A stretch of 64,000 nucleotides of DNA from Desulfurococcales archaeon (GCA_027066265.1 JAMOOB010000490.1:3111-67110), one strand, 5' to 3'; numbered from the stretch's first letter, positions 1 to 64,000 are shown. Notes: generated by a model not told the origin, from the sequence alone. A program made the numbers and translations.

Positions 1-71
1 TTAGCCATTCTGCCACCCGGAACAGGATGGCTCTAGACAGCTTTTAAACGCGTTGAAAGACATGGGCGAAA

Positions 72-371
72 CTATAGCTCGGCATGCTCCTCACCCTCCT
101 CCTCATTCTCCTCTCTTTCGATGGGTATCTCCCTAACGATGCCGTCGAGATCCACAACACGTATCCTCTCATCCGTAACCTCGAGGATATCACGAACGAG
201 GTAGGTCCTACCCTTCACAACGACGCGCTTGATAGGCTTCCGCCAGTCGAGCCTAGCGCTCTCGTGATGGTTCTTACCCCCAGCTGTGGACACAACCTTT
301 CTGATGTCCTTGGCTGCCGCCGCACCGAGAGCAAGCTTCTTGAGCGCCTCAGCGATCTTCATCTCTCTCAC
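72..371 (-). CDS. small hypothetical protein, paralog of 26574..26834
   Basis: 99-aa ORF. KRVVVKGRTYLVRDILEVTDERIRVVDLDGIVREIP aligns with KRVLIDGQELLVREVLQITPDEIVVVDLDGTVKTIP of 26574..26834. ATG at 362 is an alternative start. Confidence 0.55.
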   Translation of the reverse strand: MREMKIAEALKKLALGAAAAKDIRKVVSTAGGKNHHESARLDWRKPIKRVVVKGRTYLVRDILEVTDERIRVVDLDGIVREIPIEREENEEEGEEHAEL

Positions 372-427
372 TCGCTCTACGTAGAGCGAGGTAGTCGAGG
401 TTATTACTCTAGCAATCTATTCGAGCT

Positions 428-694
428 GTGGTGAGGTACATGGGTAGAGCCATGCTTGTGGTTGCGGCGGTTCTGGCGCTGGCAACGGTTGTTGCGGTGG
501 CTATGCTTGCGTGGTGTCTGAACTCCTTTGCTGCAGCTGCGGCTAGGGCTGCTCAGCAGCATCCGGAGGCTGTGGATATACTGGTACAGGTGTATACAGC
601 GGCTGACGCGTTCGAGAGGTTCGCGATAATGGTTCTATGCCTAGCGGTAGCCACGCTGATAGCCCTGGTAGCCACCATCAGGGGGAGGAGATAG
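428..694 (+). CDS. small two-TM membrane protein
   Basis: 88-aa ORF with two hydrophobic segments (VVAAVLALATVVAVAML, MVLCLAVATLIALVATI). Resembles the small membrane ORFs at 26052 and 26316. ATG at 440 is a likely start. Confidence 0.45.
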   Translation: MVRYMGRAMLVVAAVLALATVVAVAMLAWCLNSFAAAAARAAQQHPEAVDILVQVYTAADAFERFAIMVLCLAVATLIALVATIRGRR

Positions 695-711
695 CGTTGA
701 GAAGACGGGTC

Positions 712-1953
712 TTACCCCGCCTCGGCTTCCTCCTCCTGCTGGGTAGGCATCTCTAGGATCTCGGTGATGCTCTCCTCGGAGCCACCTTTTTCCTTCTCCT
801 CTGCTGCTCTCTGGAGCGCTACCGCTTCCTCCAGGAGCTGCTCTCTTAGCCTGAGCTTCACCTCCATGAGCTTGCTGTAGACGTCGTCCGGGATGTACAG
901 CGGTGGATGCACGGTGGCGAGGATGCTGTGGAGCGTCTTCAGCTCCCTCACGCTCCTGGGCCTGAAGAACCTTCGCGGCGAGGGCTCGTGGCTCTTCTCG
1001 ACCTCTATCCACAGCGTGGCGACTATGTTCAGCCTCTTGATCTTCTCGCCGAAGATGACCAGATCCGTCGACTCGCGGATGGCCTTGGCGAGAGCCTCCT
1101 TGACGTCGCTCGGGAAGAAGAGCGCGCCTATGCCCTCGCGCGAGATCTTGAGCGCCTGGAATATCCTCATGGCGACGAGCTTCTCCTCCTTCGTACCGTA
1201 GATCCAGTACTTGGAGATGGCAGCGGCCGTGTCGTCGAGGATCAGAGCCGGTACGTACCTGCGCTCCCTGGTCACCCTGTGGAGAACCTCTAGAGCCTCC
1301 CTCCTATCGTTGATTATCGCCGCCTTGGCTACCTCCAGCGCCAGCTGCCTGTCTATGTTCATAGCCGTGAGGGCGGTGTAGATCGTGTAGAAGCAGAGCG
1401 TGGTCTTTCCCCCGCCTAGAGGCGACAGAACGGCGATCCTCGTCCCCTCTATCTTCTCGCCCAGGTAGTAGGAGACCGTAGCGTCTATGATGTGCCTAGC
1501 CAGCGGGTTGAACAAGCCCGCGTGCGGCGACAGCAGGTCTAGCACGATGTGCTTCCTGGTCCTCACGAGCCTCGCGAGGTGTAGAACCCCCTTCGACACG
1601 ACCTTGAGCAGGCTGTTGGGGTCCACGTCGGGTACCTCTCCACATAGCAGGGACGTTATGAACTCTGCGAGCAGGCTCAGCGAGCCGTACAGGGTCCTGA
1701 TCTTGTTCGGGTCCAGCCAGAAGATCGAGAACACCAGCATCGCGTAGCGGTGCTTCTGAAGCCTTCTGATGGAGGACGCCGGCGAGGATAGCGTTCTCTC
1801 GGCTACCGCCTCCAGGAAGGGGAGCACCCTCATGTCGCATACGTTCTCCAGCACCTCTATCTTCTGCTCGACCGCGCTGGCGATGATGTCTATCCTCTGC
1901 CTGAGCACCCTATCGAGCTTCTCGAACGCTCTCAGCCTCTCCTCCACGCCCAT
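712..1953 (-). CDS. P-loop NTPase, unknown family
   Basis: 413-aa ORF with Walker A LSPLGGGKTTL and Walker B-like PALILDD. Confidence 0.7.
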   Translation of the reverse strand: MGVEERLRAFEKLDRVLRQRIDIIASAVEQKIEVLENVCDMRVLPFLEAVAERTLSSPASSIRRLQKHRYAMLVFSIFWLDPNKIRTLYGSLSLLAEFITSLLCGEVPDVDPNSLLKVVSKGVLHLARLVRTRKHIVLDLLSPHAGLFNPLARHIIDATVSYYLGEKIEGTRIAVLSPLGGGKTTLCFYTIYTALTAMNIDRQLALEVAKAAIINDRREALEVLHRVTRERRYVPALILDDTAAAISKYWIYGTKEEKLVAMRIFQALKISREGIGALFFPSDVKEALAKAIRESTDLVIFGEKIKRLNIVATLWIEVEKSHEPSPRRFFRPRSVRELKTLHSILATVHPPLYIPDDVYSKLMEVKLRLREQLLEEAVALQRAAEEKEKGGSEESITEILEMPTQQEEEAEAG

Positions 1954-2706: not shown

Positions 2707-3831
2707 ATGCGTCTCCTGATCCTGGGGTGGGAGACGCCCTTCGTCTTCACGTACGGTGGTCTAGGCACGTTCCTGGAGCATCTGGGTAGAGCGCTGGATA
2801 GTATAGGTGTAGAGACGTGGTTCCTGGGCTGCATACCCGAGGGATGGGAGAGGAGGAGGGCTGAGCTAGGGTATGTCAGGAGCGTTGCGTGCTGCAGGGT
2901 TGTGGACCTGGGTAGGAGGAACGTTGCCGAGATAGCTAGGCAGATACTCGTGCATACGTACCACGCCGCGAAGCTCCTGAGGCCGGACGCCATCATCGCC
3001 AACGACTACCATACGGCGGTAGCGGTCGTAGCCGCGAACGAGCTCGAGATCCCGTTCATCTACTACCTCCACACCGCGTCGGTAAGCGGAGCCGAGCTGA
3101 TGGCTGTAAGGCTCGCGGAGGCTGTCGCCGCGAACAGTAAGATCAGTATGGATGCGGTGGAGACGATGCTGAGCATAACGCGGTTCGTCCACCCACCGCC
3201 GCAGCCACCCATCCTAAGAGTGATCCATCCTGCTGCACCACAGCTGTTCGCAGGTGATGAGGAGAGGGAGCTTGCGGAGAAGCTGAGGAGGTCTCTAGGT
3301 ACTAAGTACGTTGTTGGATGTGTAACGAGGAATCAGCCGAACAAGGGCTGGGATCTTCTGCTGAAGGCTGTGAGAGAGCTTAGGCGCGAGGGGCTGGATC
3401 TAGGTCTGGTGATGGGCGGGAGAGGTATCCCCCGCGCAGAGGAGCCGGGTATCAGGCTTCTTGGAGACCTCGACGAGAAGACGAAGATAGCTATCTACCT
3501 AGCCTCAGACCTCGTCGTATATCCATCGACCTACGAGCCATTCGGGCTAGTACCGCTAGAAGCTGCATACCTAGGCAAACCAGTTGCAGTGTCGAAGAGA
3601 TGCGGAGTTCTAGAGCTGCTGAGGTCCGCACCGAGCTTCGAGCCAACCGTTGAGGGAATAGCCAGCACTATCAAGAGGCTTCTGCTAGAGGAGGACCTCG
3701 AGAAGATAGCCAGCGCCGTCGCGGCGGAGGCTAGGTCTAGAACATGGTACGACGTAGCAAAGGAGCTTCTACAGCTCGTGAAGGATGCGCAGGCATACAT
3801 GCCTAGACACAGAGACGAGAACATCGTGTGA
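2707..3831 (+). CDS. glycosyltransferase, GT-B fold, family 4-like
   Basis: N-terminal MRLLILGWETPFVFTYGGLGTF and C-terminal YPSTYEPFGLVPLEAAYLGKPVAV (E-x7-E motif). TATA-like GCTATATCC at 2666-2674, palindrome variant at 2686. Confidence 0.85.
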   Translation: MRLLILGWETPFVFTYGGLGTFLEHLGRALDSIGVETWFLGCIPEGWERRRAELGYVRSVACCRVVDLGRRNVAEIARQILVHTYHAAKLLRPDAIIANDYHTAVAVVAANELEIPFIYYLHTASVSGAELMAVRLAEAVAANSKISMDAVETMLSITRFVHPPPQPPILRVIHPAAPQLFAGDEERELAEKLRRSLGTKYVVGCVTRNQPNKGWDLLLKAVRELRREGLDLGLVMGGRGIPRAEEPGIRLLGDLDEKTKIAIYLASDLVVYPSTYEPFGLVPLEAAYLGKPVAVSKRCGVLELLRSAPSFEPTVEGIASTIKRLLLEEDLEKIASAVAAEARSRTWYDVAKELLQLVKDAQAYMPRHRDENIV

Positions 3832-5111: not shown

Positions 5112-5479
5112 ATCTAACCCCTATCCAACCCTCTGACCATCAAACATATATAAACCATACACATACGAAACAATAGAGCATCGAAGAACCTATGGCTTCC
5201 ACTGGAGCCACTAGATACACTACTACTCTCTACTCTGAGAGCCCCCTACATCGCCATAGAGCCCCGTCACCCTATTAAGCCACGGATGACACCAGGGTTG
5301 GACAGCAATATGTACAAAGAATGGACTCTCCAACCAGCCGGTTAGACACATATCGTATGAGCCCCCAGCTCCACTGCTTTTCTATAGAACCGCTTTGGTT
5401 GATAAGAACCTGAACCAGTGACCAGGTAATAAGGTTCGCTAACAAGCGAACCGCTTTCTATCCCTCTCCAAGAGACATC

Positions 5480-5680
5480 AAGAAGCGTTCTGAACGGATC
5501 GAGAATCACATTCCTTTCCTTCTCGATTCTTAACGTTCATTTAATAAGAATGTTTGTATAAAGAAAATATTCGATTCTTTATACATTTAATCGCTTATAC
5601 ATGTATAAACCGATTCTTATCGATTCGATAAGAAGTTAAACCGCTTCAAAGAATTGAAGCCTCGATTCTTTGAAGATAGA
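5480..5680. other. AT-rich, dyad-rich region; candidate replication origin or complex control region
   Basis: Four CGATTCTT boxes (5524, 5572, 5611, 5663), palindrome CTTATCGA-T-TCGATAAG (5615-5631), and inverted repeats TGTATAAAG/CTTTATACA and TTTATACAT/ATGTATAAA. Confidence 0.4.
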
Positions 5681-5855
5681 GACCCCGATGGCTAAGGCTC
5701 TCCAACCGGGTGGTTGGAAACCAAATGGGGTTATCCAACCCTGTCCCTATCTCAGAGTGGACAACCTGAAGGAGGGGGATTGTGAAGAGAGCCCCCGGGT
5801 CTCTCTAGGGGGTAGTGGTATCCAGAGGAAGCCGGGGTCTCTATCTATGGTGTGG

Positions 5856-6617
5856 TCATATAAACATTGTGGCTAGGGATATGACGGGTAGTAGCCTCAC
5901 GAATATGATCCCGATGTTGAGCCCTAGGACTCTGTATGGTGGTAGCTGGTAGACGTGGAACAGGTTCGCTAGGATAATCGGTGTGAAGATCAGTGCCAGG
6001 GTTCTGAATGTCTTGTCTATCCTGATCGATCCTAGCTTGGCTAGCAGCGGGGCTAGCGCGATCCAGCTAAGCATCTTTGTGTCCAGCAGGAACGTGAATG
6101 GAAAGTGTATGTCGAGGTCGTAGTAGCAGAGAACCACCAGCTCCCTTACATCCGATAGAAACGTGTATGCATAGGTCATCCTAACCAGGAGCTCCCCAAC
6201 GCAGCAGCTCCTCCATAGATAGCCCAGCACAATCATCGAGATGGTGTAGCTCAGAGCAGCCTCCACTCTCTTGATGCTGGGGCAGTGCAGAGCCATTCCC
6301 ACAGCTGGGAGCACGGACATGAGCGCCACGAGCAGGATCCGCATCCACCGCGCATCTACTCTGAGGTACCACAAGACGAAGCCTAGGGCTAGCATTACGC
6401 CTATTATCAGATCGATCTTCACGGCCCACGTAACCGGGAAGAAGAGTGGTAGCATGAAGGTTCTGGCGAAGTAGAATATGGCTAGAGCTAGCTCCCAAGA
6501 CCTACCGATCCTGATATAGCTGTACAGCGCTATAGCAAGGGCAACGAGGTTCAGCTCCGCTGCTATGATAGCCCATCCCATCATGGCTTGATGCCTACCA
6601 TAACGAGGTCGTTGCAT
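5856..6617 (-). CDS. polytopic membrane protein
   Basis: 253-aa ORF with at least 7 hydrophobic segments. Lies in a cluster with GT, MTase and membrane genes. Confidence 0.6.
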   Translation of the reverse strand: MQRPRYGRHQAMMGWAIIAAELNLVALAIALYSYIRIGRSWELALAIFYFARTFMLPLFFPVTWAVKIDLIIGVMLALGFVLWYLRVDARWMRILLVALMSVLPAVGMALHCPSIKRVEAALSYTISMIVLGYLWRSCCVGELLVRMTYAYTFLSDVRELVVLCYYDLDIHFPFTFLLDTKMLSWIALAPLLAKLGSIRIDKTFRTLALIFTPIILANLFHVYQLPPYRVLGLNIGIIFVRLLPVISLATMFI

Positions 6618-7072
6618 GTCAGAGCGAGGATCCAGCCGATAGCCTTCCTGATGGGTCTGGGGATCAGGTCCCCTATGTTATCCCCGTAGCTGTGCCTAGT
6701 CACGAACCCTGCTTCCCGCAGCATCTTTCTCAGCTTCAGAAAGCTGAAGACGTGTCTGTGGTCCGGATCTCTGTACGCGTTGCTCGATAGGAAGTTCGGT
6801 GCCGCTATCAGAACCCTGCCTCCCCGCTTGAGCACCCTGTAGCATTCGCGGAGAAACTGCTGTGGGTTGCTGAGGTGCTCGATAACGTGTACCGCTACAA
6901 CCCTTGAGAAGACCCCCGATCTGAAGGGGAGTAGATGGGCGTCCGCAGCAACCCACTCGGCATCGGGCTTCTCCCTGGGTGGATGGATATCGAGGAAAAC
7001 GGTGTTGAGGGAGGGCTTGAGGAACGGTCTGAACCTGTAGCCCCCCGCTCCAGGACCTACCTCTAGCTCCAT
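6581..7072 (-). CDS. class I SAM-dependent methyltransferase (Methyltransf_11-like)
   Basis: Motif I LEVGPGAGG, then VVAVHVIEHL and LKRGGRVLIAAPN. No DNA-MTase DPPY or PC/ENV motifs. Confidence 0.75.
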   Translation of the reverse strand: MELEVGPGAGGYRFRPFLKPSLNTVFLDIHPPREKPDAEWVAADAHLLPFRSGVFSRVVAVHVIEHLSNPQQFLRECYRVLKRGGRVLIAAPNFLSSNAYRDPDHRHVFSFLKLRKMLREAGFVTRHSYGDNIGDLIPRPIRKAIGWILALTCNDLVMVGIKP

Positions 7073-7082
7073 AGCCCTAGCC

Positions 7083-7466
7083 TCACTCCGCCCATCTTCT
7101 GAGAACCCTTATCGCCTCCTCGTTCCTGCCCTGCGCGATGAGGAGCAGAGCCCTCGCAAGATCGCGCGCGTACGGCGATGCCTCTGCAGCTAGAGCCTGA
7201 TCCACCGGGACAGCCAGCTTCTTGTAGTCTAGCCACCCTATCACCACAGCTGCGGGAACGTAGATGGTCAGGAACGTGATCGCGAAGGCGATCAGGTTGG
7301 AGAACACCAGCTTCAGCGCAGGTACGTACTCGATCAGCAGCCTGTACTGTATAACGATGAAGTTCGCGAACGATATCAGGAAGACGAGGTACGTGCTGTG
7401 ACCGCGCCTAAAGTAGGTCCAGAGCCTAAGTATCCTCTCCTTCCACATCCTGCTACACCCTGCCAA
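7083..7466 (-). CDS. membrane protein
   Basis: 127-aa ORF with 2-3 TM segments. Overlaps neighbouring genes in an operon-like way. Confidence 0.55.
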   Translation of the reverse strand: MAGCSRMWKERILRLWTYFRRGHSTYLVFLISFANFIVIQYRLLIEYVPALKLVFSNLIAFAITFLTIYVPAAVVIGWLDYKKLAVPVDQALAAEASPYARDLARALLLIAQGRNEEAIRVLRRWAE

Positions 7467-8646
7467 CGGCTCTGCTCAGCTGCTTAACCTCGGCTACGTA
7501 GCTGATCAGCTCGAGCATCCTCCTCCCGAAGACCTCCGTCGAGAACCGCTTCGCGTGCTCGATGCCTCTAGCCCTGAGCTCCCTGTAGAGCCTCTGGTCG
7601 CTCTCGAGCCTCCTGATTATGCTCGGCACCTCCTCTATCGAGCGGTAGCCCAGCATCGGCGAGAGCGGGGATACGATATCCGTCCAGGCGCCTCCATCCC
7701 TGTAGACCAGCGGTACGGCTCCAGCCGCCATCGCCTCTACGACGGATATCCCGAAGTGCTCGGCGTACGGCGGGTGCAGATATATCATCGCGTGCTCGAG
7801 GTAGCTGAGCAGCCTGTGCCTCGGGCAGTTGGGCTCGAGAACCACGTTGTCGAGCCTTCTCCTCCTAGCCTCCTCGGCGATCGCGCTGTAGTAGCCGGCT
7901 GTGTACCTATCCACGGTTCCGGCTATGACGAACGTGTGGTCCCTCATCCTCTCGGCGACGTCGAGGATAGCCATAAGGTTCTTCTCCGGCGTGAACCTGG
8001 ATACCGTTACAACCAGCTTCTCGCGCACATCGTTGCTCGCCACCCGCGAGAAGGTCTCTACGTCTACTGGAGGATGAACAACGTCTGCTACCACCCCGTA
8101 GAGCCTGTAGATCAGACCCGCTGTCCATCGAGAGTTGGTTACGACCCTACCCGCCTTCGCGTTCCTGAAGCGCGTATCGATGTACCTCCTCACGAGCCAG
8201 TTGTAGACCCTCCAGTGGATGCCCCTCTTAGCGGGATCACCGCTCCTGTAGAGCGCCAGCGCCGGGTAGTGGATGTAGCTGATATCGGCTGGAGCAACGA
8301 TGTTGCTCTGCGTCTCGATAACAACGTCGTACTCGTCTCGATACGGCTCCACGAACTCCTTGAACAGCCTGCGGTATACCATCAGCCTCCTCAGGCGAAC
8401 GAGCCTACCCCTGGAAACACACTTCAGCGCCTCGGCGAGCCCAACCCTCTTCACAACGATCCTGAGCCTCGATATATCGATACCGAAGATCATCCTAACG
8501 ACGTCTCTATCCAGCTCCGTAGAGGTGAGAACCGTTACATCGTGACCCGCGTTCCGGAGGATATCGGCTAGCCTAAGCGAGAGATGCTCGCCACCACCAA
8601 GAGTATCGTACAGCGCGTGAACTATCAGCACACGCAAAGCGTTCAC
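7453..8646 (-). CDS. glycosyltransferase, family 4-like
   Basis: RVLIVHALYDTLGGGEHLSLRLA at the N-terminus and PPYAEHFGISVVEAMAAGAVPLVYRDGG at the C-terminus. Confidence 0.85.
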   Translation of the reverse strand: MNALRVLIVHALYDTLGGGEHLSLRLADILRNAGHDVTVLTSTELDRDVVRMIFGIDISRLRIVVKRVGLAEALKCVSRGRLVRLRRLMVYRRLFKEFVEPYRDEYDVVIETQSNIVAPADISYIHYPALALYRSGDPAKRGIHWRVYNWLVRRYIDTRFRNAKAGRVVTNSRWTAGLIYRLYGVVADVVHPPVDVETFSRVASNDVREKLVVTVSRFTPEKNLMAILDVAERMRDHTFVIAGTVDRYTAGYYSAIAEEARRRRLDNVVLEPNCPRHRLLSYLEHAMIYLHPPYAEHFGISVVEAMAAGAVPLVYRDGGAWTDIVSPLSPMLGYRSIEEVPSIIRRLESDQRLYRELRARGIEHAKRFSTEVFGRRMLELISYVAEVKQLSRAVGRV

Positions 8647-8701: not shown

Positions 8702-8713
8702 CCACAGCTGTGG
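8702..8713. promoter_or_regulatory. CCACAGCTGTGG palindrome (perfect)
   Basis: Centred in the divergent intergenic region, about 55 nt from both starts (8646 minus, 8768 plus). Confidence 0.7.
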
Positions 8714-13318: not shown

Positions 13319-13322
13319 GGTT

Positions 13323-46374: not shown

Positions 46375-46396
46375 GTGGATCCCCATAAAAAGGCGT

Positions 46397-46977: not shown

Positions 46978-46989
46978 CCACAGCTGTGG
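46978..46989. promoter_or_regulatory. CCACAGCTGTGG palindrome (perfect)
   Basis: TTTT-palindrome-GGATGTGCG-ATG of the 51-aa zinc-ribbon ORF, at the head of the TFB module. Confidence 0.7.
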
Positions 46990-48358: not shown

Positions 48359-48386
48359 TTCCAAACCCCAAAACAAATGGGTTCGA

Positions 48387-55442: not shown

Positions 55443-55450
55443 TTCCAACC

Positions 55451-55462
55451 CCACAGCTGTGG
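55451..55462. promoter_or_regulatory. CCACAGCTGTGG palindrome (perfect)
   Basis: Lies 8 nt upstream of the VWA gene ATG 55442. Confidence 0.7.
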
Positions 55463-55520
55463 ATATGGACAACAAGCGTAGTCATCCCCCAAACAAATGT
55501 CTATTGTTTGATGTGGTTTG

Positions 55521-55680
55521 GGTGCACCTAAACCTTTGCAGAGGGACGCAAGAATTGAGAGAGGTGCACCGAGATAGCGTCAAGACCTGGGTTTACATAG
55601 CCGATACAAAACATTGTGGAAGCGTTCAATGTTGCAGCCCCTGTATATACCGCTCCATCGCCGTAGCCGTCTGATGGTTT
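55521..55680 (-). repeat. GGTGCACC-box element plus duplicated promoter/leader, copy B
   Basis: GGTGCACC at 55521 and 55563, with the identical 35-mer at 55634-55668. Lies between the moxR-like and VWA genes. Confidence 0.7.
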
Positions 55681-55699
55681 GCTCAGCTATGTAAAAAGG

Positions 55700-56863
55700 C
55701 TAGGTGTTTCCGGCTAGCTTCTTCAGCATCTCCTTCGTCTCAGCAACCTTGTTGAGGTACTCCCTAGCCTGCGCAATGATAGCCTCTGCTCTTGGTTTGA
55801 GCCACGGCTTGTTGGCGATCTTGTTGAGGTCGAAGTCGACAATTTCCTGAAGGATCTTCTCGGCTTCGTCAAGTCTACAGCTTCTTATCAGCTCCTTGGC
55901 TCTGCTGAGCTTCTCGGCAAGCTCGCCGACCTCTCCGAGACCCTCCATAATGATCTTCTTGATCTGCTCATGCTCACTCCTATCGCGTGCTAGATACGGC
56001 AGTATCTTTATCGCTCCCTCCATAACGTTCTCTAAGCGCACACCGAACAGCGCCAGATAGGCGGCGAGGAGCTTCGGGAGCTTCTCGATGATGGTTCTAT
56101 CGCTAACGATAATGCCTTTGGCTCTGAGCTCCTTGACGAAGTTGATCACGTTGACATGGTACAGCTTGATGAAGTCCATATCCCTTATCCTGCTCCTTAT
56201 CAATGTGATGGTATAGCCATGAAGCGTCCTAACGTCGTCCATAGACGCAACGGGCTTGATCTCGTGCCCGTTGAGCCATCTAGCCTCCAGCGCTTTCAGT
56301 ATCAGCACATCATCGTTTAGGTAGTCAAAGAATATTCTGATACTGAATCGGTCGTAGAGAGCCTGCAGCTCCTCGTCCTGTGGCACCTCGTTACTAGCAC
56401 CAAATAAGCTCCACAGCTTGGCAGGAACCTCAGCACCGGACATCGGGTCGTAGAGTATCCTCTCCTGCATTAGAGCCAGCAAAGCGTTTAGAATAGCGCT
56501 GTTAGCCTTGAACACCTCGTCGAGGAACACTATCTCAGCATCCTTGATCTTCGTCCATTTCCTCACAAGATCTCCTCGTTCTCTAAGCGCTGGAATGTCG
56601 AACGGACCAAGAATCTCGATATCGCTGGTAAACTTGGTTAGTAGATAGCTGTAGAAGCTGGCGTTCAGCAGCTTGGCAAGGGTCTTGATAGTCATCGTCT
56701 TGGCTGTGCCCGGCGGGCTGATCATGACGGCGTGTTCCTTGGCAATCAATGCTAGGACAAGCATCGTATTAACCTCGTCGTGACCGATGACAACCGAGTT
56801 CAGAACGTTTAGAACCTGCTTAACGTTATGACGAGCGTTTTTCACTTCTTGAGGAACGGACAT
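55700..56863 (-). CDS. MoxR/RavA-type AAA+ ATPase
   Basis: VIGHDEVNTMLVLALIAKEHAVMISPPGTAKT (Walker A) and VFLDEVFKANSAILNALLALMQER (Walker B, RavA-like). Start trimmed to ATG 56863. Confidence 0.85.
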   Translation of the reverse strand: MSVPQEVKNARHNVKQVLNVLNSVVIGHDEVNTMLVLALIAKEHAVMISPPGTAKTMTIKTLAKLLNASFYSYLLTKFTSDIEILGPFDIPALRERGDLVRKWTKIKDAEIVFLDEVFKANSAILNALLALMQERILYDPMSGAEVPAKLWSLFGASNEVPQDEELQALYDRFSIRIFFDYLNDDVLILKALEARWLNGHEIKPVASMDDVRTLHGYTITLIRSRIRDMDFIKLYHVNVINFVKELRAKGIIVSDRTIIEKLPKLLAAYLALFGVRLENVMEGAIKILPYLARDRSEHEQIKKIIMEGLGEVGELAEKLSRAKELIRSCRLDEAEKILQEIVDFDLNKIANKPWLKPRAEAIIAQAREYLNKVAETKEMLKKLAGNT

Positions 56864-56889
56864 TTCAACCCCCAAAACAAACAAGGTGT

Positions 56890-57342
56890 TTACCAGGGCT
56901 CGGTAACGATCTGTACAGCTTTGATCACTTCGAAGCCTTTGAACTCGTGTATCTTGATTGTTCCGTCTGCATAGGTTGTTGCTGTTCGTCTATCTGGAGC
57001 CTCCTCGATGATTCTCTTGGCTTCCTCCCACGTTCCTACCGTTGCTATAGCCTCCATCTTCGCGTAGAGCACTGTAAATCCATACCTCTTCGATAGCTCA
57101 ACAAGCCGCGCTATAAACGATAGCGGTAGCACAGGCACAATTATCTTCGCATTGTGCTTCTGAGCAATTTCAACAACAGTTTCAGCATTAGGAACAGTTC
57201 CATCTACCTGAATAATCCTGATGTTCCCTAGCTTCTCCTTGAGCCTCTGGATCTGTACCGGCAACGGCTTGTGACGGCTAACCCATAGAACTACAGTTAC
57301 CGGCTCGGGATCGTTATAGATTTCAACGACTCTGAACGACAT
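56890..57342 (-). CDS. hypothetical protein
   Basis: 150-aa version starting MSFRVVEIY after CCACAGCTGTGGGGATCTCC. Confidence 0.55.
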   Translation of the reverse strand: MSFRVVEIYNDPEPVTVVLWVSRHKPLPVQIQRLKEKLGNIRIIQVDGTVPNAETVVEIAQKHNAKIIVPVLPLSFIARLVELSKRYGFTVLYAKMEAIATVGTWEEAKRIIEEAPDRRTATTYADGTIKIHEFKGFEVIKAVQIVTEPW

Positions 57343-57350
57343 GGAGATCC

Positions 57351-57362
57351 CCACAGCTGTGG
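57351..57362. promoter_or_regulatory. CCACAGCTGTGG palindrome (perfect)
   Basis: TTTT-palindrome-GGATCTCC-ATG 57342. Confidence 0.7.
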
Positions 57363-57384
57363 AAAACCCCAAAGAAAACAGTGT

Positions 57385-58689
57385 TTATCGTTGGGAAACC
57401 GTCTTCTCTAGCTCTTCCACCATCTTCTTGACTGCTTCATAGAGCTTTCTGCGATACTCAAGGTCTTCGTTGAGTCTCTTGAGGTATGACATCTTCTTCT
57501 CCGCTTTAGCCTTCTCAATCCTTTCCCTCAGCTCCTTCAACTCACTCTCAAGCAGATACTTAGCCTCGTTCAAGATATCGAGTGCCACTTCCGGTTCCAC
57601 GTATATCGGTATAACCTTCACAACGTACTTGCTGAGAAGCTTCGGGTAGTCGGGGCGAACCTTCGCCAGCGCCGGCATCTCGGAGAGCTTCCGTCGTATC
57701 ATATCAGCAACCTCCTCAGCAATCTTCACCGCTTCGTCAGTTACCGCAATCCATAGACCAGCCTGTCTCTCAGAGCCAAGATGTATGAAGTATCTACGTG
57801 CCTTCTTCGTTGCTTCCGTCCTGATAGTTTCGAGAGCACTGGCCAGCGCCCTTCTTAGCTGGTCATCGAAGTCCCTGATCTCGATAAAGCCCTTATCGGT
57901 CTTCTCAATACGTACACTCTGCACCAAGTAGCGGGAGGGTCTCACCCATCGCAGGATATAGAGCTTGACCAGCTGTGTCTTCTGGGGAACCTCCTTCTCT
58001 GTGGTAGCAGTTGTGGTAACAGCCTTAGCCTCCTGAACCTCCTCTTCCTCACCTTCCTCTTCGCCAAGAATCCGCTGTGCTATCTTCATCTTCATCTCTT
58101 CGCTTAGCTCCTCCTTCTCCTCCTCTGTTTCCTCCTGTTCTTCCTCTTCCTCTCCACGGATCTTCTTTAGCCATTCCTCGATGTCTTTAGCAATCTCTTC
58201 GAGCTTCTGCTTGTTCAGAACGAATACAACCGTCCCTGTATACTTCAGCTTACTCCCTGGCTTCCACGCCGGTATCGCTATCAACTCTGGATGCTCCTTC
58301 TCGATCTTTCTCTGTAGGCTGAACGCTATCGCCCATGCCTTCTTCTTGTCCTTGTCGTTGAAGACACCCTCGTATGCCGTCATCATCTTTGCAAAGATCT
58401 CGACATTCTTCTCCTCATACACTGCTCTATCCTGATACATCAGCTTTATTTCGAAACGCATACACTGTCCATTGACAGCGATATCGCTGCACATATTAGC
58501 ATCAGCAAAGTAGTAGGTGATCTCGGTCTTCAGAATATTTCCTAGCTCACGTCTATAGCCAACAATAGCTCTATCACTATCGTCAATAGAGTAATGCTTC
58601 GTATTCTTGATGTATACATCTTTGATGATCGATACGAGAAGATCCTTGACAGAGGTATACCTAACAGAACCATTTCCATTAGATGACAT
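57385..58689 (-). CDS. hypothetical protein with central poly-acidic linker
   Basis: 434-aa version starting MSSNGNGSV after TTTGGGGGTTGCA. Contains an EEEEEQEETEEEKEE linker. Confidence 0.6.
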   Translation of the reverse strand: MSSNGNGSVRYTSVKDLLVSIIKDVYIKNTKHYSIDDSDRAIVGYRRELGNILKTEITYYFADANMCSDIAVNGQCMRFEIKLMYQDRAVYEEKNVEIFAKMMTAYEGVFNDKDKKKAWAIAFSLQRKIEKEHPELIAIPAWKPGSKLKYTGTVVFVLNKQKLEEIAKDIEEWLKKIRGEEEEEQEETEEEKEELSEEMKMKIAQRILGEEEGEEEEVQEAKAVTTTATTEKEVPQKTQLVKLYILRWVRPSRYLVQSVRIEKTDKGFIEIRDFDDQLRRALASALETIRTEATKKARRYFIHLGSERQAGLWIAVTDEAVKIAEEVADMIRRKLSEMPALAKVRPDYPKLLSKYVVKVIPIYVEPEVALDILNEAKYLLESELKELRERIEKAKAEKKMSYLKRLNEDLEYRRKLYEAVKKMVEELEKTVSQR

Positions 58690-58715
58690 TGCAACCCCCA
58701 AACAAACAGGGTAGA

Positions 58716-58835
58716 TCATTCATCGTCGAAGCAGATGTAGACAGTACCATCATCGGGGTCATAATCCCATGCACCACCGTATGGAGCCGAGAAGTTGGGT
58801 TCGGTATAGAGAGCCATACAGTTCTTCCTCTCCAT
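58716..58835 (-). CDS. 39-aa small ORF (below the ORF-track cutoff)
   Basis: My translation: MERKNCMALYTEPNFSAPYGGAWDYDPDDGTVYICFDDE. Preceded by the conserved TTTTTGGGGGATCGAA-ATG module. Confidence 0.35.
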   Translation of the reverse strand: MERKNCMALYTEPNFSAPYGGAWDYDPDDGTVYICFDDE

Positions 58836-60421: not shown

Positions 60422-60449
60422 TCCCCACAGCTGTAGAGAAGGGAGAACC

Positions 60450-60478
60450 CCGTAGCCCCGCCAGTGGCGGAGCTACGG
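60450..60478 (-). other. GC-rich interrupted 12-bp hairpin
   Basis: CCGTAGC-C-CCGCC-AGT-GGCGG-A-GCTACGG, between genes 60579..60797 and 60089..60421. Confidence 0.5.
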
Positions 60479-60578
60479 AGCGGGGTCTGCGACCCCCAAA
60501 GAAACGGTGTTTGTATGGGTTTAAAACAGTATTGTAATCGGGAAGAAGCAGATGTTTTTCGTAGCAATCACAAGGCGT

Positions 60579-60814: not shown

Positions 60815-61858
60815 GGGGTTGTGGGGAGCCGGGGGCCTACCCCTTCATCCCTCCCCGTGCTTCCCCCACCCCGCATCCCACCCTTCTTGGGGTGGGGTTA
60901 GCCGGGGTAACCGGGCCCCGCCACATCCCCCCTTCCCCGCCCCCGGGCTGTTCACCCGGGGTACGGGTACGGGGTCGGGGGGGCCCTGGAGGCCCCACCG
61001 CGGAGAACCGCGGCTTCGCCCCCTGGGGTGCGGGGCTACCCACGCCCGAGTTACCTCGGGCGTGGGCGGGCCTTGGTCGGGGGCAGACCCCCGACCCCCC
61101 TACTCCTCTTCGCGAAGCCCCCGTGGCCCACCCCGTGGGCCCGGGGGGACTGCTCCCGTTCCCCGCGGTCCTTCCCCCGAGAGGCTGGTGGGCCATTACC
61201 CCACCAACACCCCTCGGGGTGGACCACGGTTCACAACGGCGGCGGGGACCCCTTCGGGGCGGGCTCCCCTCGGGGATGAACCGGGGGTTCATCCCATCCC
61301 CGGGGGTCATCCCCAACAGGTCGCACCCCGGGGATTGGTCCCCCCGTCGCAGCCCCCCACGCCCCCACCCCCTACCGGGGCTAACCCGGTAGGAAGGTGG
61401 GGGCAGACCCACGGGCAGGCCACGGGGGCACGGCGCGGGGCGGGGAGGAGCCTATGCCCAACCCCCTGCCCACCCCTCATCCCAACCCTCCTCACCCCAC
61501 ATTGCTGCGTTTACCTCGCCTCACCCGCCCACCCAAGCCCCCACCTTAAAGCCCCCCGGGGGCTCCGCCCGATCGGGCGGAGGGGTGGGCGGGTTCATCG
61601 GCTCATCGGGTTCCTGCTAATGACAGCGGTGTTTGGGGGATCATCGTCCTCGGGCGGATCGGGATGAGCAGGGGGTTCTGGGCGGCTCCTCCCCGCCCCC
61701 ACTGCCTCGCTTGCATCGCTCCTTCGGGCGGGGTGCCGCATCCCCCGCCCGGCGTTGCCCCGGGTTGGGTTGCGCCCGGGGTCGCCGGGCGGGTCTCGGT
61801 TGGTCATCCGCGCCCCGCCTTGCGGCGGGGCGCTCCCGTCCCCCGCCCGGGGCTCTCC
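60815..61858 (-). ncRNA. candidate large GC-rich structured RNA (strand and RNA status inferred)
   Basis: About 80% G+C. Perfect hairpins at 61039-61066, 61076-61095, 61118-61147, 61273-61295, 61371-61393, 61563-61582 and 61810-61833. ORFs in all frames are P/G/R-rich. BRE/TATA upstream on the minus strand. Confidence 0.35.
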
Positions 61859-61995: not shown

Positions 61996-62408
61996 GGTTC
62001 GCACTATTCTCGTGGGCACGGTCTTTCGGCTCGCATGGACTCGCTCCGCATGCTAAACGGGGCTCGCATATCCTCCCTCTACACGCGAGTTCGGTTCGCA
62101 CACGGTTTCGCCACACGGTTCTACGGATCCGCACGCGAGATCTCTACACCTCGTCTCCGGCTCACATGAGTAGGCTCGACACGAGCAAATGGTTCACACG
62201 AAATCTATCAACATATCTCGGCGGTTCGCATCCGCATAAAGTTTCTCCATATCGAGCAAAGCCTCGCGGCTCGCACAGTAAACCTACCCAGGGTCTTCTC
62301 GGCTCGCACACCTCTTCTGCGCACAGGAGACCTCGGCTCGCATCGGAACTCTTCCCAGGCCGGAGCCGGCTCGCAACGCAGTCCTGCACATTCATCGAGG
62401 TGCTCGCA
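61996..62408. repeat. 13-unit array of GG(C/T)TCGCA boxes with ~32-33 bp period
   Basis: Boxes at 61996, 62028, 62061, 62093, 62125, 62159, 62191, 62223, 62268, 62301, 62335, 62368 and 62401. The intervening ~23-nt segments are unrelated. Confidence 0.75.
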
Positions 62409-62416
62409 CAGGGGGT

Positions 62417-63337
62417 CTAGAGAGCTTGGGTGGCTTCGGCCCTCCTCTCGATCGCTAGGGGCACCTCCCTGCCCCGCGCGACGACGATTATCGGCGGGTA
62501 GTACATGTTCCTGATCCCGGCGAAGACCACGTACGGCGGTCTGTACGGCAGGCCCAGGATCGCGCAGTAGGCCTCGTAGTACTGCGAAAGCCATACCTTG
62601 GCCACGAGGCGGTACGCTCTGAGCGTAGCGTGCGACACTATAGACGACATCAGCTCCCTAGCCCTAGACCTGGTCACCGAGACGCCGAGGCTCTTAAGAG
62701 CCTCGGCAAACCCATCAACGTCCCTGCTCCTAGCAGCCGCAGCAACAGCCCCAACCCTATCACCGTCGATGGCATCGACGGCTGTACCCAGGTACCTACC
62801 GAGCTTCTGCGGAACGAGCTTCCTGATCTCCCGCTCCAGCCACTCCTCGAAGAGCGACCTGTAGAACCTGACGTTCCTAACCAGCTGCCTAGCGATCTGC
62901 CCCGTCACAGCCTTGCAGATCCTGTGGTAGCACTCGGCGCTACCGCACTTCTCGACGTAGTACTCCCTCGGCGCCCATCCGCACCACGCCCACAGCTTGC
63001 TAACGGTCTGAAACCTCCACGGATGGATGTTCCCTAGAACCAGACCGCTCAGCACAGTACCCAGCCCAGGAAGGTACCTGAGGTACTGCTGGTACACCGG
63101 GTGCCGCCTAACGAGAGGCTCCATCAGCTCCTCGAGCTTCTCCTTACCCATCTCAGCAGCCCTAACGATCTCCGGCGTCAGCTCGCACGGAAAGCCCTGC
63201 TCCCTACACACCTTCGCATAGAAGTTCTTGTAGCTCTGAACACGCTTCCTCTGGATCCAGTACAGACGCGAAACCTCGTAGAGCCTCATCTCGATAGACC
63301 TAACCGACTCGGGACAGCGAGACCAGTCGATGGGCAT
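62417..63337 (-). CDS. protein with IS110-family Transposase_20-like (HhH) segment; no obvious DEDD domain
   Basis: YLRYLPGLGTVLSGLVLGNIHPWRFQTVSKLWAWCGWAPREY resembles the IS110 L.iPGiG...a..l.aei.d..rF.s...l.ay.Gl.P signature. GGTGGAGGG lies before the ATG. Confidence 0.5.
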   Translation of the reverse strand: MPIDWSRCPESVRSIEMRLYEVSRLYWIQRKRVQSYKNFYAKVCREQGFPCELTPEIVRAAEMGKEKLEELMEPLVRRHPVYQQYLRYLPGLGTVLSGLVLGNIHPWRFQTVSKLWAWCGWAPREYYVEKCGSAECYHRICKAVTGQIARQLVRNVRFYRSLFEEWLEREIRKLVPQKLGRYLGTAVDAIDGDRVGAVAAAARSRDVDGFAEALKSLGVSVTRSRARELMSSIVSHATLRAYRLVAKVWLSQYYEAYCAILGLPYRPPYVVFAGIRNMYYPPIIVVARGREVPLAIERRAEATQAL

Positions 63338-63396
63338 AGCCCTCCACCGCTTCTCCAGCTATAAAGCACAGAGAATATAAGGTCTTTAGCATTGGT

Positions 63397-63408
63397 CCAC
63401 AGCTGTGG
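63397..63408. promoter_or_regulatory. CCACAGCTGTGG palindrome (perfect)
   Basis: Lies about 60 nt upstream of the IS110-like gene ATG 63337, with TATA-like CTTATATTC in between. Confidence 0.7.
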
Positions 63409-63661
63409 AGAGGGATAGAACGATGTGTAGCGCCAGAGACACACGTGTTCCACTATATACAGCGGTGTTACAGCTGTAACTATCGAGGAGATGAATAGCG
63501 GTAGACGAGGTTAAACCTCGTAGCACGGGTATCTGCACGGGAGTGGAGCCGTGTCCGCGAGAAGCATAGTCAAGCCGGTATGCATCGTGCTGGCGATATG
63601 CATAGCTACGGGTATCGCGGATATCGTGATAGACATCCTTTCGCGGTCTAGCGGTGCAGAC

Positions 63662-64000
63662 ATGTTCGCTGCTAGGATGGATAGCTATGACGATGTGCCG
63701 AACATCATTTCCACAGCTGTGGACAGCTGCTATATGTGTCCGCGCAGCGGTGATCCGCTTGATCTGGCTATGAAGGTGCTTCTCCGGTACAGGTACTGTC
63801 TGCACTACCCCTTCGACGAGGTGTGGCTGCCGATGACGGTGGCGATGACGAGGTGCGGAACATGTATGGACCTAGCGCTGATGCTGGTAGCGTCGGAGAT
63901 ATCCTCTGGTCACGAAGCGCTTCTGCTGCTGATCGACACCGGAGAGGAAGAGATCGGGCATGCAGCTGCGGCTATCAGGACGAGCAGCGGGTGGATCGTT
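63662..64000 (+). CDS. partial CDS, possible transglutaminase-like/papain-fold Cys peptidase
   Basis: Open frame from ATG 63662 (or ATG ~63733 just after the palindrome) to the window end. RCGTCMDLALMLVASE...IGHAAAAI looks like a Cys...His core. Confidence 0.35.
   Translation, partial: MFAARMDSYDDVPNIISTAVDSCYMCPRSGDPLDLAMKVLLRYRYCLHYPFDEVWLPMTVAMTRCGTCMDLALMLVASEISSGHEALLLLIDTGEEEIGHAAAAIRTSSGWIV

Follow-up and report, generated by a model that had tools for sequence, protein, structure and literature searches.

A probable virus-like element of a hyperthermophilic archaeon with a dispersed palindrome and a divergent TFB

Results

Gene content of the window

The window analysed here comprises 64,000 nucleotides, bases 3111–67110 of the 72,206-bp contig C490. 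A greedy non-overlapping call yielded 91 open reading frames (ORFs) of at least 45 amino acids, which cover 93% of the window; 67 of them lie on the minus strand and about 25 look spurious. This agrees with an initial annotation made from the sequence, which had reported about 80 ORFs and a strong strand bias. Pfam and profile searches of the ORFs found no housekeeping genes, as that annotation had also stated, and the remaining ORFs are orphans. The families that it had named were recovered with Pfam (three GT4 glycosyltransferases, AAA, a LamG giant, an SF2 helicase, DUF5131, TFB, VWA, bpMoxR and zinc fingers), in addition to a SAM methyltransferase and a Transposase_20 fragment. No tRNA or Rfam family was detected in the window and no integrase family at E < 0.001 in a profile search, in line with the earlier reading, and no packaging enzyme was recognised.

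An AAA+ initiator-like gene (g3, Orc1/Cdc6 or ‘DnaA-like’; 712–1953, minus strand) matches PHROG 5484 with an E-value of 8e-12. The GT4 glycosyltransferases are encoded at 2707–3831 (plus), 7453–8646 (minus; in part similar to HAV2 ORF118) and 16950–18218 (minus), and the SAM-dependent methyltransferase at 6581–7072 (minus). In a 156-residue protein (9078–9548, minus), the N-terminus resembles PHROG 38434 as well as a protein from Aeropyrum pernix ovoid virus 1. Further along the minus strand lie a 1403-residue orphan giant for which no family was found (34856–39067), the SF2 helicase with ResIII and Helicase_C domains (40232–42388), a DUF5131/radical-SAM-like protein that is 53% identical to its copy in a sister element (42625–43461), a C2H2 zinc-finger protein that is a candidate DNA binder (47801–48376) and an IS110-type Transposase_20 fragment (62417–63337).

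A conserved module and an element-encoded TFB

Four consecutive minus-strand genes form a module. Its first gene, g78 (57385–58719), encodes a protein of 444 residues with an acidic linker and a conserved C-terminal alpha/beta and helical-hairpin domain, the model of which has no recognisable DNA-binding fold. It is followed by g77, a conserved 160-residue protein (56890–57372), a bpMoxR-type AAA+ ATPase (55700–56884; bpMoxR 3.8e-49) and an adjoining VWA-domain protein (54093–55475), whose VWA_CoxE match of 1.8e-4 is below the Pfam cut-off and whose likely start is an ATG 8 nt after a palindrome at 55451. MoxR and VWA recur in 41 and 29 of 73 related loci respectively, and only g78, g77, MoxR and VWA recur across the family. 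Judged from these loci, the g78-(g77)-MoxR-VWA module appears to mark an undescribed hot-spring lineage. Along with a coiled-coil protein, MoxR and VWA are reminiscent of the set for tail development in ATV (PMC4124505). In one relative, L027, an Hjc resolvase adjoins the g78 homologue.

The element also encodes a TFB (45517–46386, minus), for which Pfam TFIIB matches in two stretches (1.5e-18), in accordance with two C-terminal cyclin-fold repeats. Human TFIIB aligns over nearly the whole protein, and the cyclin repeats resemble archaeal TFB core structures such as 1AIS and 1D3U. An alignment of this TFB with that of the sister element contains no N-terminal Cys4 zinc ribbon; a conserved DPVTGE.VDP.TGEV segment without cysteine is present in both. 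Two genes upstream of TFB lies a separate gene for a 51-residue zinc ribbon, next to one for a 139-residue zf-BED-like protein (both within 46397–46968, minus). The element TFB is 29% identical to the host TFB. Among 50,697 viral records, just one further TFB homologue was found, the TFIIB-type protein of YNP2 (27% identity over 91% of the length), whose annotation includes a zinc finger, whereas the ribbon-like N-terminal segment of the C490 protein lacks cysteine. By these comparisons, the TFB is evidently genuine, divergent and rare among viruses; it may play a role in the element.

A 22-bp dyad recurs at gene boundaries

The 12-bp palindrome CCACAGCTGTGG, which had been proposed as a recurring cis-element, occurs 47 times in the window with at most one mismatch, against 0.10 copies expected. 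The 26 exact copies begin at 8702 (8702–8713), 9695, 13087, 18285, 18935, 23847, 25104, 31622, 32229, 33349, 34406, 35458, 39704, 44598, 44875, 45484, 46978, 48387, 50524, 52565, 53740, 55451, 57351, 61933, 63397 and 63711, and 21 further copies carry one mismatch. CCACAGCTGTGG is the core of a 22-bp dyad, CRTnnCCACAGCTGTGGnnAYG, with approximately 55 sites in the genome, or about one per kilobase, mostly at gene boundaries. Its flanks are conserved symmetrically: of 50 sites, position –3 is T in 40 and +3 is A in 43, and –5 is C in 30 and +5 is G in 31.

Twenty of the 47 sites in the window fall in its non-coding 7%, 12 others are either no more than 30 nt from a called start or confined to doubtful ORFs, and about 15 are located inside long, credible ORFs. 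Many palindromes are positioned 2–10 nt before a start codon or 6–7 nt after a stop, and an ATG-initiated ORF begins within 12 nt of around 15 of the 55 sites. The copies at 8702 and 31622 separate divergent genes, and that at 46978–46989 lies 2 nt upstream of the ATG region that opens the gene string for the zinc ribbon, the zf-BED-like protein and the TFB. No TATA-like peak was found at a fixed distance from the palindrome, which is thus not a core promoter element.

The palindrome is confined to the element and its relatives. Fourteen contigs of the bin carry CCACAGCTGTGG (C490 and 13 others, approximately 180 kb), and the rest of the bin (1.92 Mb) has none; among 350 related genomes of the class there are at most two copies each, and none in three genomes of the same genus. 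Likewise, the 10-mer core CACAGCTGTG is present 33 times in C490, 33 times in the sister element and not once in the 1.92 Mb of host contigs. In 74 related metagenomic loci (408 kb), the core occurs 186 times versus 0.4 expected; it is enriched in 44 of these 74 contigs, which carry the g78-MoxR-VWA module, and is the top palindrome in about 40, whose GC contents span 36–62%. One clade of the related loci, with 100/100 support, uses CACTGCAGTG in place of CACAGCTGTG. ATSV has seven copies of CACAGCTGTG where 0.02 are expected, and none was found in STSV1/2, SMV4, YNP2 or HAV2. These counts indicate that the palindrome is common to an undescribed group of hot-spring viral contigs.

Two further cis-signals

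The other two motifs that had been proposed fared differently. The T-run/G-run junction (T3+G4+) stands: it occurs 15 times on the coding minus strand (60500, 60058, 59505, 59118, 58851, 58702, 57373, 56877, 55493, 53086, 48373, 47711, 47047, 45426 and 31554) versus three times on the plus strand, mostly 5–7 nt before an ATG. One example, at 56860–56895 (minus), reads (T)AAACACC..TTTT.TTTGGGGG-N5-7-ATG. This gene-start signal is specific to C490. The 3′ half of the palindrome and its flank form a G-run like that of this signal.

The GGTGCACC boxes are real, with eight copies in the window versus 0.77 expected, arranged in three clusters and one single site. They do not constitute a genome-wide signal, as most belong to one duplicated non-coding module of approximately 185 nt. 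Both minus-strand copies of this module, at 44125–44310 and, between the MoxR and VWA genes, at 55506–55690, contain a conserved TATA-like GAGCGGTATATACAGGGG and, after it, a pair of GGTGCACC boxes spaced 43 bp from each other, and a partial inverted copy at 15930–16120 has three boxes (15971, 16024 and 16075). The proposal that the element has its own cis-regulatory vocabulary therefore holds for the palindrome and the T-run/G-run junction.

A self-closing replicon and its host

The full contig was examined for termini, as had been advised. The first 736 bp of C490 repeat the last 736 bp with 97.6% identity, giving a unit length of approximately 71,470 bp, nine tenths of which lie within the window. 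C490 is therefore probably a complete genome of about 71.5 kb, either circular or terminally redundant, a conclusion that rests on an imperfect (97.6%) overlap. The expectation that the borders of the element lie outside the window does not hold, because the replicon closes on itself and there are consequently no att borders to find.

The end overlap, the lack of housekeeping genes and the confinement of the palindrome mark positions 1–64000 as part of an extrachromosomal genome. Together with a CRISPR spacer against the sister element and the patchy distribution of its gene family, they bear out the view that this is mobile or viral DNA. Two of 350 further genomes from the class have a member of the g21 family, for example, and none of 202 high-quality ones does. 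In the proposed CRISPR-spacer check, one spacer in the bin matches the sister-element contig C506 in 28 of 28 bases, and none of the roughly 20 recovered spacers matches C490. The sister element carries IS elements and a resolvase.

C490 was binned from a metagenome with a hyperthermophilic Thermoprotei archaeon that is Desulfurococcales- or Ignisphaera-like. Host contigs contain TFB genes, the nearest TFBs (57% identity) are found in Ignisphaera and Desulfurococcales MAGs, and the proteome composition is hyperthermophilic. The archaeal origin that had been deduced is thereby substantiated, and the sequence data support a hyperthermophilic Thermoprotei archaeon as the probable host.

Relationship to large tailed spindle viruses

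At least six genes link C490 to large tailed spindle viruses (ATSV, STSV) and HAV2. The AAA ATPase encoded by g20 (10637–12115, minus) belongs to the p529-type family of ATV p529 and HAV2 ORF506, which has been described previously (PMC4124505). It matches ATSV gp56, STSV1/2, YNP1/2 and HAV2 ORF506 with E-values of 1e-25 to 8e-68, its best viral match being HAV2 (34% identity over 92% of the length). The adjacent g21 (12120–12560, minus) encodes a 146-residue helical-bundle partner of the ATPase that corresponds to HAV2 ORF139a in sequence and in gene order and is syntenic in other contigs; its fold has no match to any solved capsid. Two orphan genes for proteins of 253 and 314 residues (12557–14267, minus), characterised by position only, occupy the same places in the gene order as genes for 287 and 288 residues that precede the g21-like and AAA genes in loci L072–L074. 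The 2060-residue LamG-domain giant g32 (19807–25989, minus) is homologous to HAV2 ORF1767 and ORF263 and to ATSV gp44 (E 3e-10), g78 matches ATSV gp14, and a class-II CCA-adding enzyme matches ATSV gp83. The ATSV transmembrane protein gp44 and the p529-type ATPase are each termed a ‘conserved large spindle virus protein’. g3 and ATSV gp41 share PHROG 5484 with no direct match between them.

No homologue of the ATSV giants gp36 and gp93 or of its integrase was found in C490. The major head protein PHROGs 14391 and 10676 (from ATSV gp45 and gp70) have no match in the whole bin at E ≤ 1, and phmmer searches with gp45 and gp70 returned nothing below E 0.18, both being tests at the level of sequence profiles. 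The terminal overlap places C490, at 71,470 bp, within the size range of the Bicaudaviridae (circular dsDNA of about 50–76 kb).

Beyond a dsDNA genome of about 70 kb, circular in ATSV and probably so in C490, the p529-type ATPase, the gp44-like giant and the gp14 homologue, ATSV and C490 have in common a class-II CCA-adding enzyme, a ‘DnaA-like’ AAA+ protein, a MoxR-type ATPase, glycosyltransferases, a methyltransferase and the CACAGCTGTG core. However, protein identities are only 27–35%, head protein and integrase homologues were not found in C490, the GC content is 55% compared to 36%, and the host is Desulfurococcales-like here and belongs to the Sulfolobales in the case of ATSV. The palindrome is also about five times denser in C490 and fully symmetric, whereas the ATSV copies have a one-sided TTKCAG flank. 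HAV2, a 17.7-kb ‘tadpole-shaped’ virus from Yellowstone with a neutrophilic hyperthermophile as host (PMC4124505), resembles C490 in its ATPase, the ORF139a-like gene order, the giant ORF1767/ORF263 and a GC content of 52%. Yet it is four times smaller and has no g78-MoxR-VWA module, no TFB and no copy of the palindrome. The C490 lineage is, by homology, most plausibly a distant relative of ATSV-like Bicaudaviridae and HAV2.

Discussion

Taken as a whole, our data are best explained by an uncultivated virus or virus-like extrachromosomal element that belongs to an undescribed hot-spring lineage and uses the dyad as a protein-bound control site, a reading to which we assign a probability of roughly 60%; the element may form virions. 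The initial annotation had likened it to large crenarchaeal viruses or to conjugative or integrated elements. The viral half of this comparison now has homologues in ATSV, STSV, YNP viruses and HAV2 behind it; for the conjugative half, no conjugation genes turned up. Nevertheless, a large plasmid or other non-viral extrachromosomal element sharing genes with viruses, in which the palindromes serve partition or replication control, has to be considered. Crenarchaeal viruses and plasmids do share genes, the searches returned neither a capsid nor a portal, terminase or integrase, replication-type genes are present (the Orc1/Cdc6-like AAA+ protein and the helicase), and the IS elements and resolvase of the sister element would suit a plasmid. 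We regard a plasmid as unlikely, given that the searches detected no conjugation or relaxase family in the approximately 150 ORFs of both elements, that the shared genes are annotated in ATSV as ‘conserved large spindle virus proteins’ and that 55 dispersed sites are unlike parS or iteron clusters. The likeness of MoxR, VWA and the coiled-coil protein to the ATV tail-development set (PMC4124505) also speaks for a virus.

Because conservation extends symmetrically into both flanks, we read the sites as double-stranded DNA bound by a dimer. On this reading, a homodimeric protein encoded by the element would bind the 22-bp dyad and regulate transcription across the whole genome, where it could serve as an operator or roadblock over start sites or set boundaries between genes; no palindrome-binding protein was identified in this analysis. 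Alternatively, the palindrome could act in RNA, where it would direct processing, translation coupling or termination of polycistronic transcripts. Its placement 2–10 nt before many starts or 6–7 nt after stops, the G-run formed by its 3′ half and flank and the missing fixed-distance TATA-like peak are all compatible with this, but a perfect 12-nt palindrome allows only a 4-bp hairpin, two-sided symmetry suits bound DNA, and the sites occur in both transcription orientations, between divergent genes (8702, 31622) and within ORFs, which makes an RNA signal rather improbable. Least credible, in our view, are recombination, replication or packaging sites (crossover sites, nuclease or resolvase targets) with no part in transcription. 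Such sites at gene boundaries would permit module shuffling, homodimeric endonucleases have sites resembling a 22-bp pseudo-palindrome in length, and L027 has its Hjc resolvase beside the g78 homologue; no site-specific nuclease or recombinase recurs family-wide, however, where only g78, g77, MoxR and VWA do, and a density of one site per gene close to start codons fits expression control better.

Genome-wide control through the dyad would have a bacterial parallel. Stoperators of cluster A mycobacteriophages, the sites of the L5 gp71 repressor, are asymmetric and oriented with transcription. They share with the C490 palindrome its occurrence as many identical sites in the intergenic gaps of one viral genome, with dozens of 12–13-bp sites mostly in short gaps or at start and stop codons. 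In contrast, the C490 site is a perfect dyad; the likeness is one of the sites themselves, and a repressor effect is putative.

Among archaeal viruses, promoters with virus-specific regulatory motifs and inverted repeats (PMC11065993), as well as the GTC element of SIRV (PMC5569661), have been reported. Like C490, the SSV1 F55 sites, the SIRV GTC element and Aca8-type early or anti-defence promoters illustrate virus-private cis-elements at many promoters, some being inverted repeats read as repressor sites. Those motifs are found at a set position in some of the promoters, a few to about 20 per genome. The C490 dyad, in contrast, keeps no constant distance to a TATA box, recurs roughly once for every gene and is shared by elements whose proteins are only 30–45% identical.

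The initial annotation had further suggested that the TFB and the cis-elements would form a self-contained gene-expression system. In its most far-reaching form, the TFB, perhaps with the zinc ribbon and the zf-BED-like protein, would act with the 22-bp dyad in a virus-private transcription programme, an archaeal counterpart of phage sigma-factor switching. We consider this a speculative and improbable extension. If true, a viral initiation factor or its partner would recognise palindrome-marked gene starts and redirect the host RNA polymerase to viral genes, and the site would evolve in step with its factor throughout an undescribed, widespread lineage of hot-spring viruses, for instance in the switch from CACAGCTGTG to CACTGCAGTG.

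Genome organisation and gene content

Contig C490 measures 72,206 bp and is the longest of the 508 contigs in the bin (2.1 Mb; 86% complete, 3.4% contamination); the window spans its positions 3111-67110. Its first 736 bp are a direct repeat of its last 736 bp, with 97.6% identity. These ends are most simply read as those of a 71,470-bp genome, either circular or terminally redundant, in which the assembler would have overrun the closure via a strain variant. Because the ends overlap as in a closed or terminally redundant genome, there are no borders to find, whereas the initial annotation had placed them outside the window. The 7.5 kb of C490 beyond the window hold further orphan genes and, on the minus strand at C490:67715-69175 (L002:716-2176 among the metagenomic loci), a class-II CCA-adding tRNA nucleotidyltransferase (PolyA_pol + HD) with 32% identity to gp83 of the large tailed spindle virus ATSV. 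Class-II enzymes are normally of bacterial or eukaryotic type; here the enzyme seems to travel with these archaeal viruses.

A greedy call of ORFs of at least 45 aa in the window yields 91, of which 67 lie on the minus strand and roughly 25, judged by sequence, look like spurious overlaps. About 110 products were scanned against Pfam and PHROG, and the hits bear out the gene inventory of the initial annotation. They comprise three GT4 glycosyltransferases, one SAM methyltransferase, an AAA ATPase, a 2060-aa giant protein bearing LamG, an SF2 helicase, a DUF5131 protein, a TFB, a VWA protein, a bpMoxR ATPase, a Transposase_20 fragment, several zinc-finger or ribbon proteins and an Orc1/Cdc6-like AAA+ protein (PHROG 5484). 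The same scans revealed no housekeeping gene and no integrase or conjugation family, and tRNA and Rfam scans found neither a tRNA nor an Rfam family. The sequence supports the earlier reading of C490: the replicon is archaeal, virus-like and complete, and has cis-elements of its own. It may form virions, and its proposed "self-contained" gene-expression system is a hypothesis. Near the initiator-like gene (712-1953), no stretch free of genes is longer than that at window positions 5112-5855.

A symmetric site at gene boundaries

The palindrome CCACAGCTGTGG is present in the window in 26 exact copies, and in 47 at ≤1 mismatch, where 0.10 would be expected. All 61 exact copies of the bin fall within 14 contigs (about 180 kb), and the remaining 1.92 Mb contain neither the palindrome nor its 10-mer core, CACAGCTGTG. 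Three genomes of the same genus have no copy, and 350 other genomes of the class have at most two copies per genome. With no copy in 1.92 Mb of host DNA, the motif does not have the same density genome-wide, an outcome that would have refuted the initial annotation.

The sites are spaced by about 1 kb (median 1013 bp). Non-coding DNA, which makes up 7% of the window, holds 20 of the 47 sites; 12 further sites lie ≤30 nt from a called start or solely inside doubtful ORFs, and about 15 fall within credible long ORFs. On the coding strand, the palindrome is often found 2 or 8-10 nt ahead of an ATG, or 6-7 nt past a stop codon. Aligning 50 sites, oriented by the downstream ORF, revealed symmetric flanks, with C at -5 (30/50) and T at -3 (40/50) mirrored by A at +3 (43/50) and G at +5 (31/50). 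The extended site, CRTnnCCACAGCTGTGGnnAYG, is longer than 12 bp and still symmetric, and since the dyad reaches into nnAYG, the frequent "nnATG" after the palindrome is partly the motif itself.

A 22-bp dyad of such form is what a homodimeric DNA-binding protein recognises. In the best-supported mechanism, the palindrome would be a multi-copy binding site, placed at gene boundaries, for a putative dimeric regulator encoded by the element. A fixed promoter element is disfavoured by the 50-site alignment, which has no AT-rich peak at a set distance on either side. The palindrome is also a poor RNA hairpin, and a restriction-modification reading of CAGCTG is at odds with an observed/expected ratio of 0.82 in the host, which amounts to no strong avoidance. 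For a palindrome acting as a regulator site, one nearest analogue is the stoperators of mycobacteriophages. The other is the set of virus-specific motifs found at promoters of archaeal viruses (PMC11065993). Among 8.4 million searchable papers, we found no mention of the 12-mer or the 10-mer in the archaeal or viral literature. The palindrome offers a concrete cis-element for testing global transcription control in archaeal viruses.

Candidate binders and the element-encoded TFB

Two proteins were considered as binders of the palindrome and set aside. The model of the C-terminal domain of g78 (a 444-aa protein, 57385-58719) comprises an alpha/beta part and a long helical hairpin (pLDDT 89.5), without a recognisable DNA-binding fold. 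Foldseek returned no match for the domain as a whole, and VIA-align matched only its helical hairpin, at Z values of about 10-11, which for helical proteins is the level of noise. The fixed place of g78 ahead of MoxR and VWA suggests a role in morphogenesis instead. The second protein, of 85 aa (C490:2861-3118, minus strand; locus L001), shows the top conservation between C490 and the second palindrome-bearing element of the bin (65% identity) and is a small core protein of Desulfurococcales viruses. As a binder it was discarded because it has a homologue (40%) in APSV1, which lacks the palindrome, whereas ATSV has the palindrome and no homologue. Further candidate binders are the C2H2 protein (47801-48376), the zf-BED-like protein (46397-46816), the zinc ribbon (46813-46968) and a zinc-finger protein of 130 aa (28970-29362), as well as gp14 for the ATSV motif.

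The TFB gene (45517-46386) encodes a 289-aa product (Pfam TFIIB, 1.5e-18) that can be aligned with human TFIIB over nearly its whole length, its cyclin-repeat region matching solved archaeal TFB cores. It shares 29% identity with the host TFB and 35-38% with the copy of the second element, and the two element-encoded proteins have in common a ribbon-like N-terminus without cysteines. Just upstream, behind a palindrome, lie genes for a zf-BED-like protein and a zinc ribbon of 51 aa. In 50,697 viral records, we detected one other TFB homologue, in Sulfolobales virus YNP2 (27% identity). The general view is that archaeal viruses depend on the TBP and TFB of the host and use a few private operator motifs (PMC5569661). 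Given a single other viral example and this presumed reliance on host TFB, the C490 gene is unusual; no tie to the cis-motifs emerged here. The element departs from the usual picture with a TFB of its own and one dyad site at roughly every gene boundary.

Further cis-elements

Runs of at least three T followed by at least four G occur 15 times on the coding strand vs 3 times on the other. They share the consensus (T)AAACACC-N2-TTTT-N-TTTGGGGG-N5-7-ATG, whose TAA frequently serves as stop codon for the gene upstream. Where this T-run/G-run junction and the palindrome co-occur, the junction lies upstream. The junction is private to C490, since it is far denser there (0.25 per kb) than in the host (0.033) or the second element (0.037); with an ATG at ≤12 nt, the densities are 0.138 vs 0.005 per kb. 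It is distinct from the GGTG-type ribosome-binding signal of the host: TTTGGGG precedes 0.1% of host starts vs 3.3% in C490, and a host Shine-Dalgarno origin was thus rejected. The junction may act as a compact promoter, in which a TATA box of the TAAACA type would lie about 23 nt ahead of a leaderless ATG, or as a signal for intercistronic translation.

Of the three recurring cis-elements initially proposed, the palindrome and the T-run/G-run junction hold up. The third, the GGTGCACC box, is enriched (8 copies vs 0.77 expected) but is not a genome-wide word, because most boxes belong to one duplicated module of about 185 nt. Its two copies (44125-44310 and 55506-55690) are 81% identical over 138 nt and begin, on the coding strand, with a conserved GAGCGGTATATACAGGGG, followed by two GGTGCACC boxes at a distance of 43 bp. 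Three more boxes lie in a partial copy, inverted, at 15930-16120. The boxes thus form a control region that is local and duplicated, or possibly a small RNA; analysis of RNA structure in the module, with two copies only, gave no covariation.

Kinship with large tailed spindle viruses

The AAA ATPase (10637-12115) has 34% identity over 92% of its length to ORF506 of Hyperthermophilic Archaeal Virus 2 (HAV2), with additional matches to ATSV gp56, STSV1/2 and Sulfolobales viruses YNP1/2. Its family is that of ATV p529, reviewed in PMC4124505. Upstream of it, g21 (146 aa, 12120-12560) matches HAV2 ORF139a in the same gene order. The 2060-aa protein is 33-41% identical to HAV2 ORF1767/ORF263 and matches ATSV gp44 (3e-10). 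The g78 proteins of C490 and of the second element match ATSV gp14 at 1e-10 and 6e-21 respectively; a tblastn search of the phage collection with the C490 protein gave no match, and the copy of the second element found gp14. In the ATSV annotation, gp56, gp44 and the DnaA-like gp41 are "conserved large spindle virus proteins".

A confident helical-bundle model of g21 (pLDDT 92) matched neither the PDB nor a solved capsid, and g21 was rejected as a capsid protein; its single look-alike in BFVD has no known name (TM 0.63). The PHROGs of the large-spindle-virus major head protein have no match across the bin. We therefore file the element as a distant relative of the large tailed spindle viruses and HAV2 and not as a member of the Bicaudaviridae, because the scans gave neither a head protein PHROG nor an integrase and g21 matches no solved capsid. 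That the element is instead a plasmid is a live rival reading.

A wider lineage with motif variants

Among 5.8 billion proteins, a word index finds just four g78 homologues, and among the 50,697 viral records ATSV alone has one. A scan of IMG/VR with the g78 alignment detected no relative, and one of GTDB genomes found nothing, its patterns being low-complexity poly-E and hence uninformative. By pattern scan with the alignment of the g78 C-terminal domain, JGI metagenomes yielded 74 loci (408 kb), one of which (Ga0256842_1000957) is contig C506 of the second element itself. These loci contain 186 copies of CACAGCTGTG vs about 0.4 expected. The 10-mer turns up in 44 of the 74 and leads the palindromic 10-mers in about 40, whose GC contents run from 36% to 62%. 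Eight loci carry CACTGCAGTG instead, in 2-8 copies each; a tree of the g78-like domain groups them as a single clade supported at 100/100. As this represents a single change, the pattern is one of clustering and not of co-evolution. Other repeated palindromes are TACAGCTGTA in L121 and L145, TCGAGCTCGA in L094 and L095, GGGGATCCCC in L081 and AGCAGCTGCT in L130.

In ATSV, seven core copies (0.02 expected) take the form TCACAGCTGTGWTTKCAG, of which we found no mention in the literature. The core has two copies in ATV and is absent from STSV1, STSV2, SMV4, YNP2, HAV2 and APSV1. The 18-nt ATSV copies lie at positions 182, 45520, 50996, 53931, 54057, 54456 and 61986 of NC_029316; four fall between genes, close to small ORFs, and another is part of an annotated stem-loop region at the start of the record. 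The dyad site is kept, with clade-specific variants, across at least 74 metagenomic contigs and one described virus.

In 73 loci, the conserved neighbours of g78 are MoxR (41), VWA (29) and g77 (11). This neighbourhood recalls the tail-development set of ATV, which consists of a filament protein, MoxR p618 and VWA p892 (PMC4124505). The palindrome and the g78 family go together, which may be simple co-inheritance in one viral clade, because the neighbours of g78 are MoxR and VWA and its model has no DNA-binding fold. Together, the palindrome and the g78-MoxR-VWA module provide a sequence handle for an undescribed virus lineage of neutrophilic hyperthermophiles.

The second element and the host

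End overlaps chain the other palindrome-bearing contigs as C318-C476-C224-C191-C130-C27 and C506-C155, about 88 kb in all at about 50% GC. Proteins shared with C490 include bpMoxR (55% identity), DUF5131 (53%), g38 (45%), g78 (44%), g77 (43%) and the AAA ATPase (38%). The second element adds an IS607-like pair (resolvase and TnpB), ThyX and a DUF2201 VWA partner; it yielded no capsid or conjugation family. A distant g21-like gene adjoins an Orc1/Cdc6-like AAA+ gene (PHROG 5484) at C27:14140-15611 and at C289:6032-7194. Across these elements, AAA+ proteins seem to have the g21-type helical bundle as a general partner, and C289 may belong to yet another element.

The bin has CRISPR array fragments with the repeat CTTTCAATTCCAT-N5-GGATTC. 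A spacer at the end of C353 (repeat CTTTCAATTCCATTCTTGGGATTC), cut by the contig end, is identical to C506:21665-21692 over 28/28 bases, which ties the elements to a host with CRISPR arrays in this bin. None of about 20 recovered spacers matches C490. A spacer on C145 equals C8:8954-8992 (39/39 bases). Contig C8 (23.5 kb, GC 0.46) has no copy of the palindrome and carries the other class-II (bacterial or viral type) CCA-adding enzyme of the bin; owing to the spacer match and this enzyme, it is probably a third mobile element or virus and not host chromosome.

TFB genes are present on host contigs, and one has its best relatives, at 57% identity, in Ignisphaera aggregans and Desulfurococcales MAGs; the assembly of the bin yielded no 16S gene. 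An IVYWREL fraction of 0.475, with the same composition in the elements, indicates a hyperthermophilic host as judged from predicted proteins.

Additional features of the window

Several small T/V/I-rich proteins (18828-19397, 29761-30048 and 16502-16966) consist of four-residue [K/R]-x-[V/I]-T-like repeats; they match no family and may be beta-rich structural proteins. A 74% GC island at 60815-61858 (about 55% for the element) contains low-complexity pseudo-ORFs only. On the minus strand, a T-run/G-run signal and a hairpin rich in GC (about 60430-60500) come before this island, which might represent a foreign insert or a non-coding RNA. At 61996-62408, adjoining an IS110-like gene, eleven GG[CT]TC[GA]CA boxes are spaced by 32-34 bp, apart from two gaps that measure 66 and 45 bp. 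Their inter-box segments are mutually unrelated, giving an array-like or iteron-like structure, and just 3 more copies occur on that strand elsewhere in the window. Tandem-repeat arrays at 32036-32214 (periods 7/12/25/32) and 32523-32728 (12/36/60) flank the start of a plus-strand gene (32365-33348).
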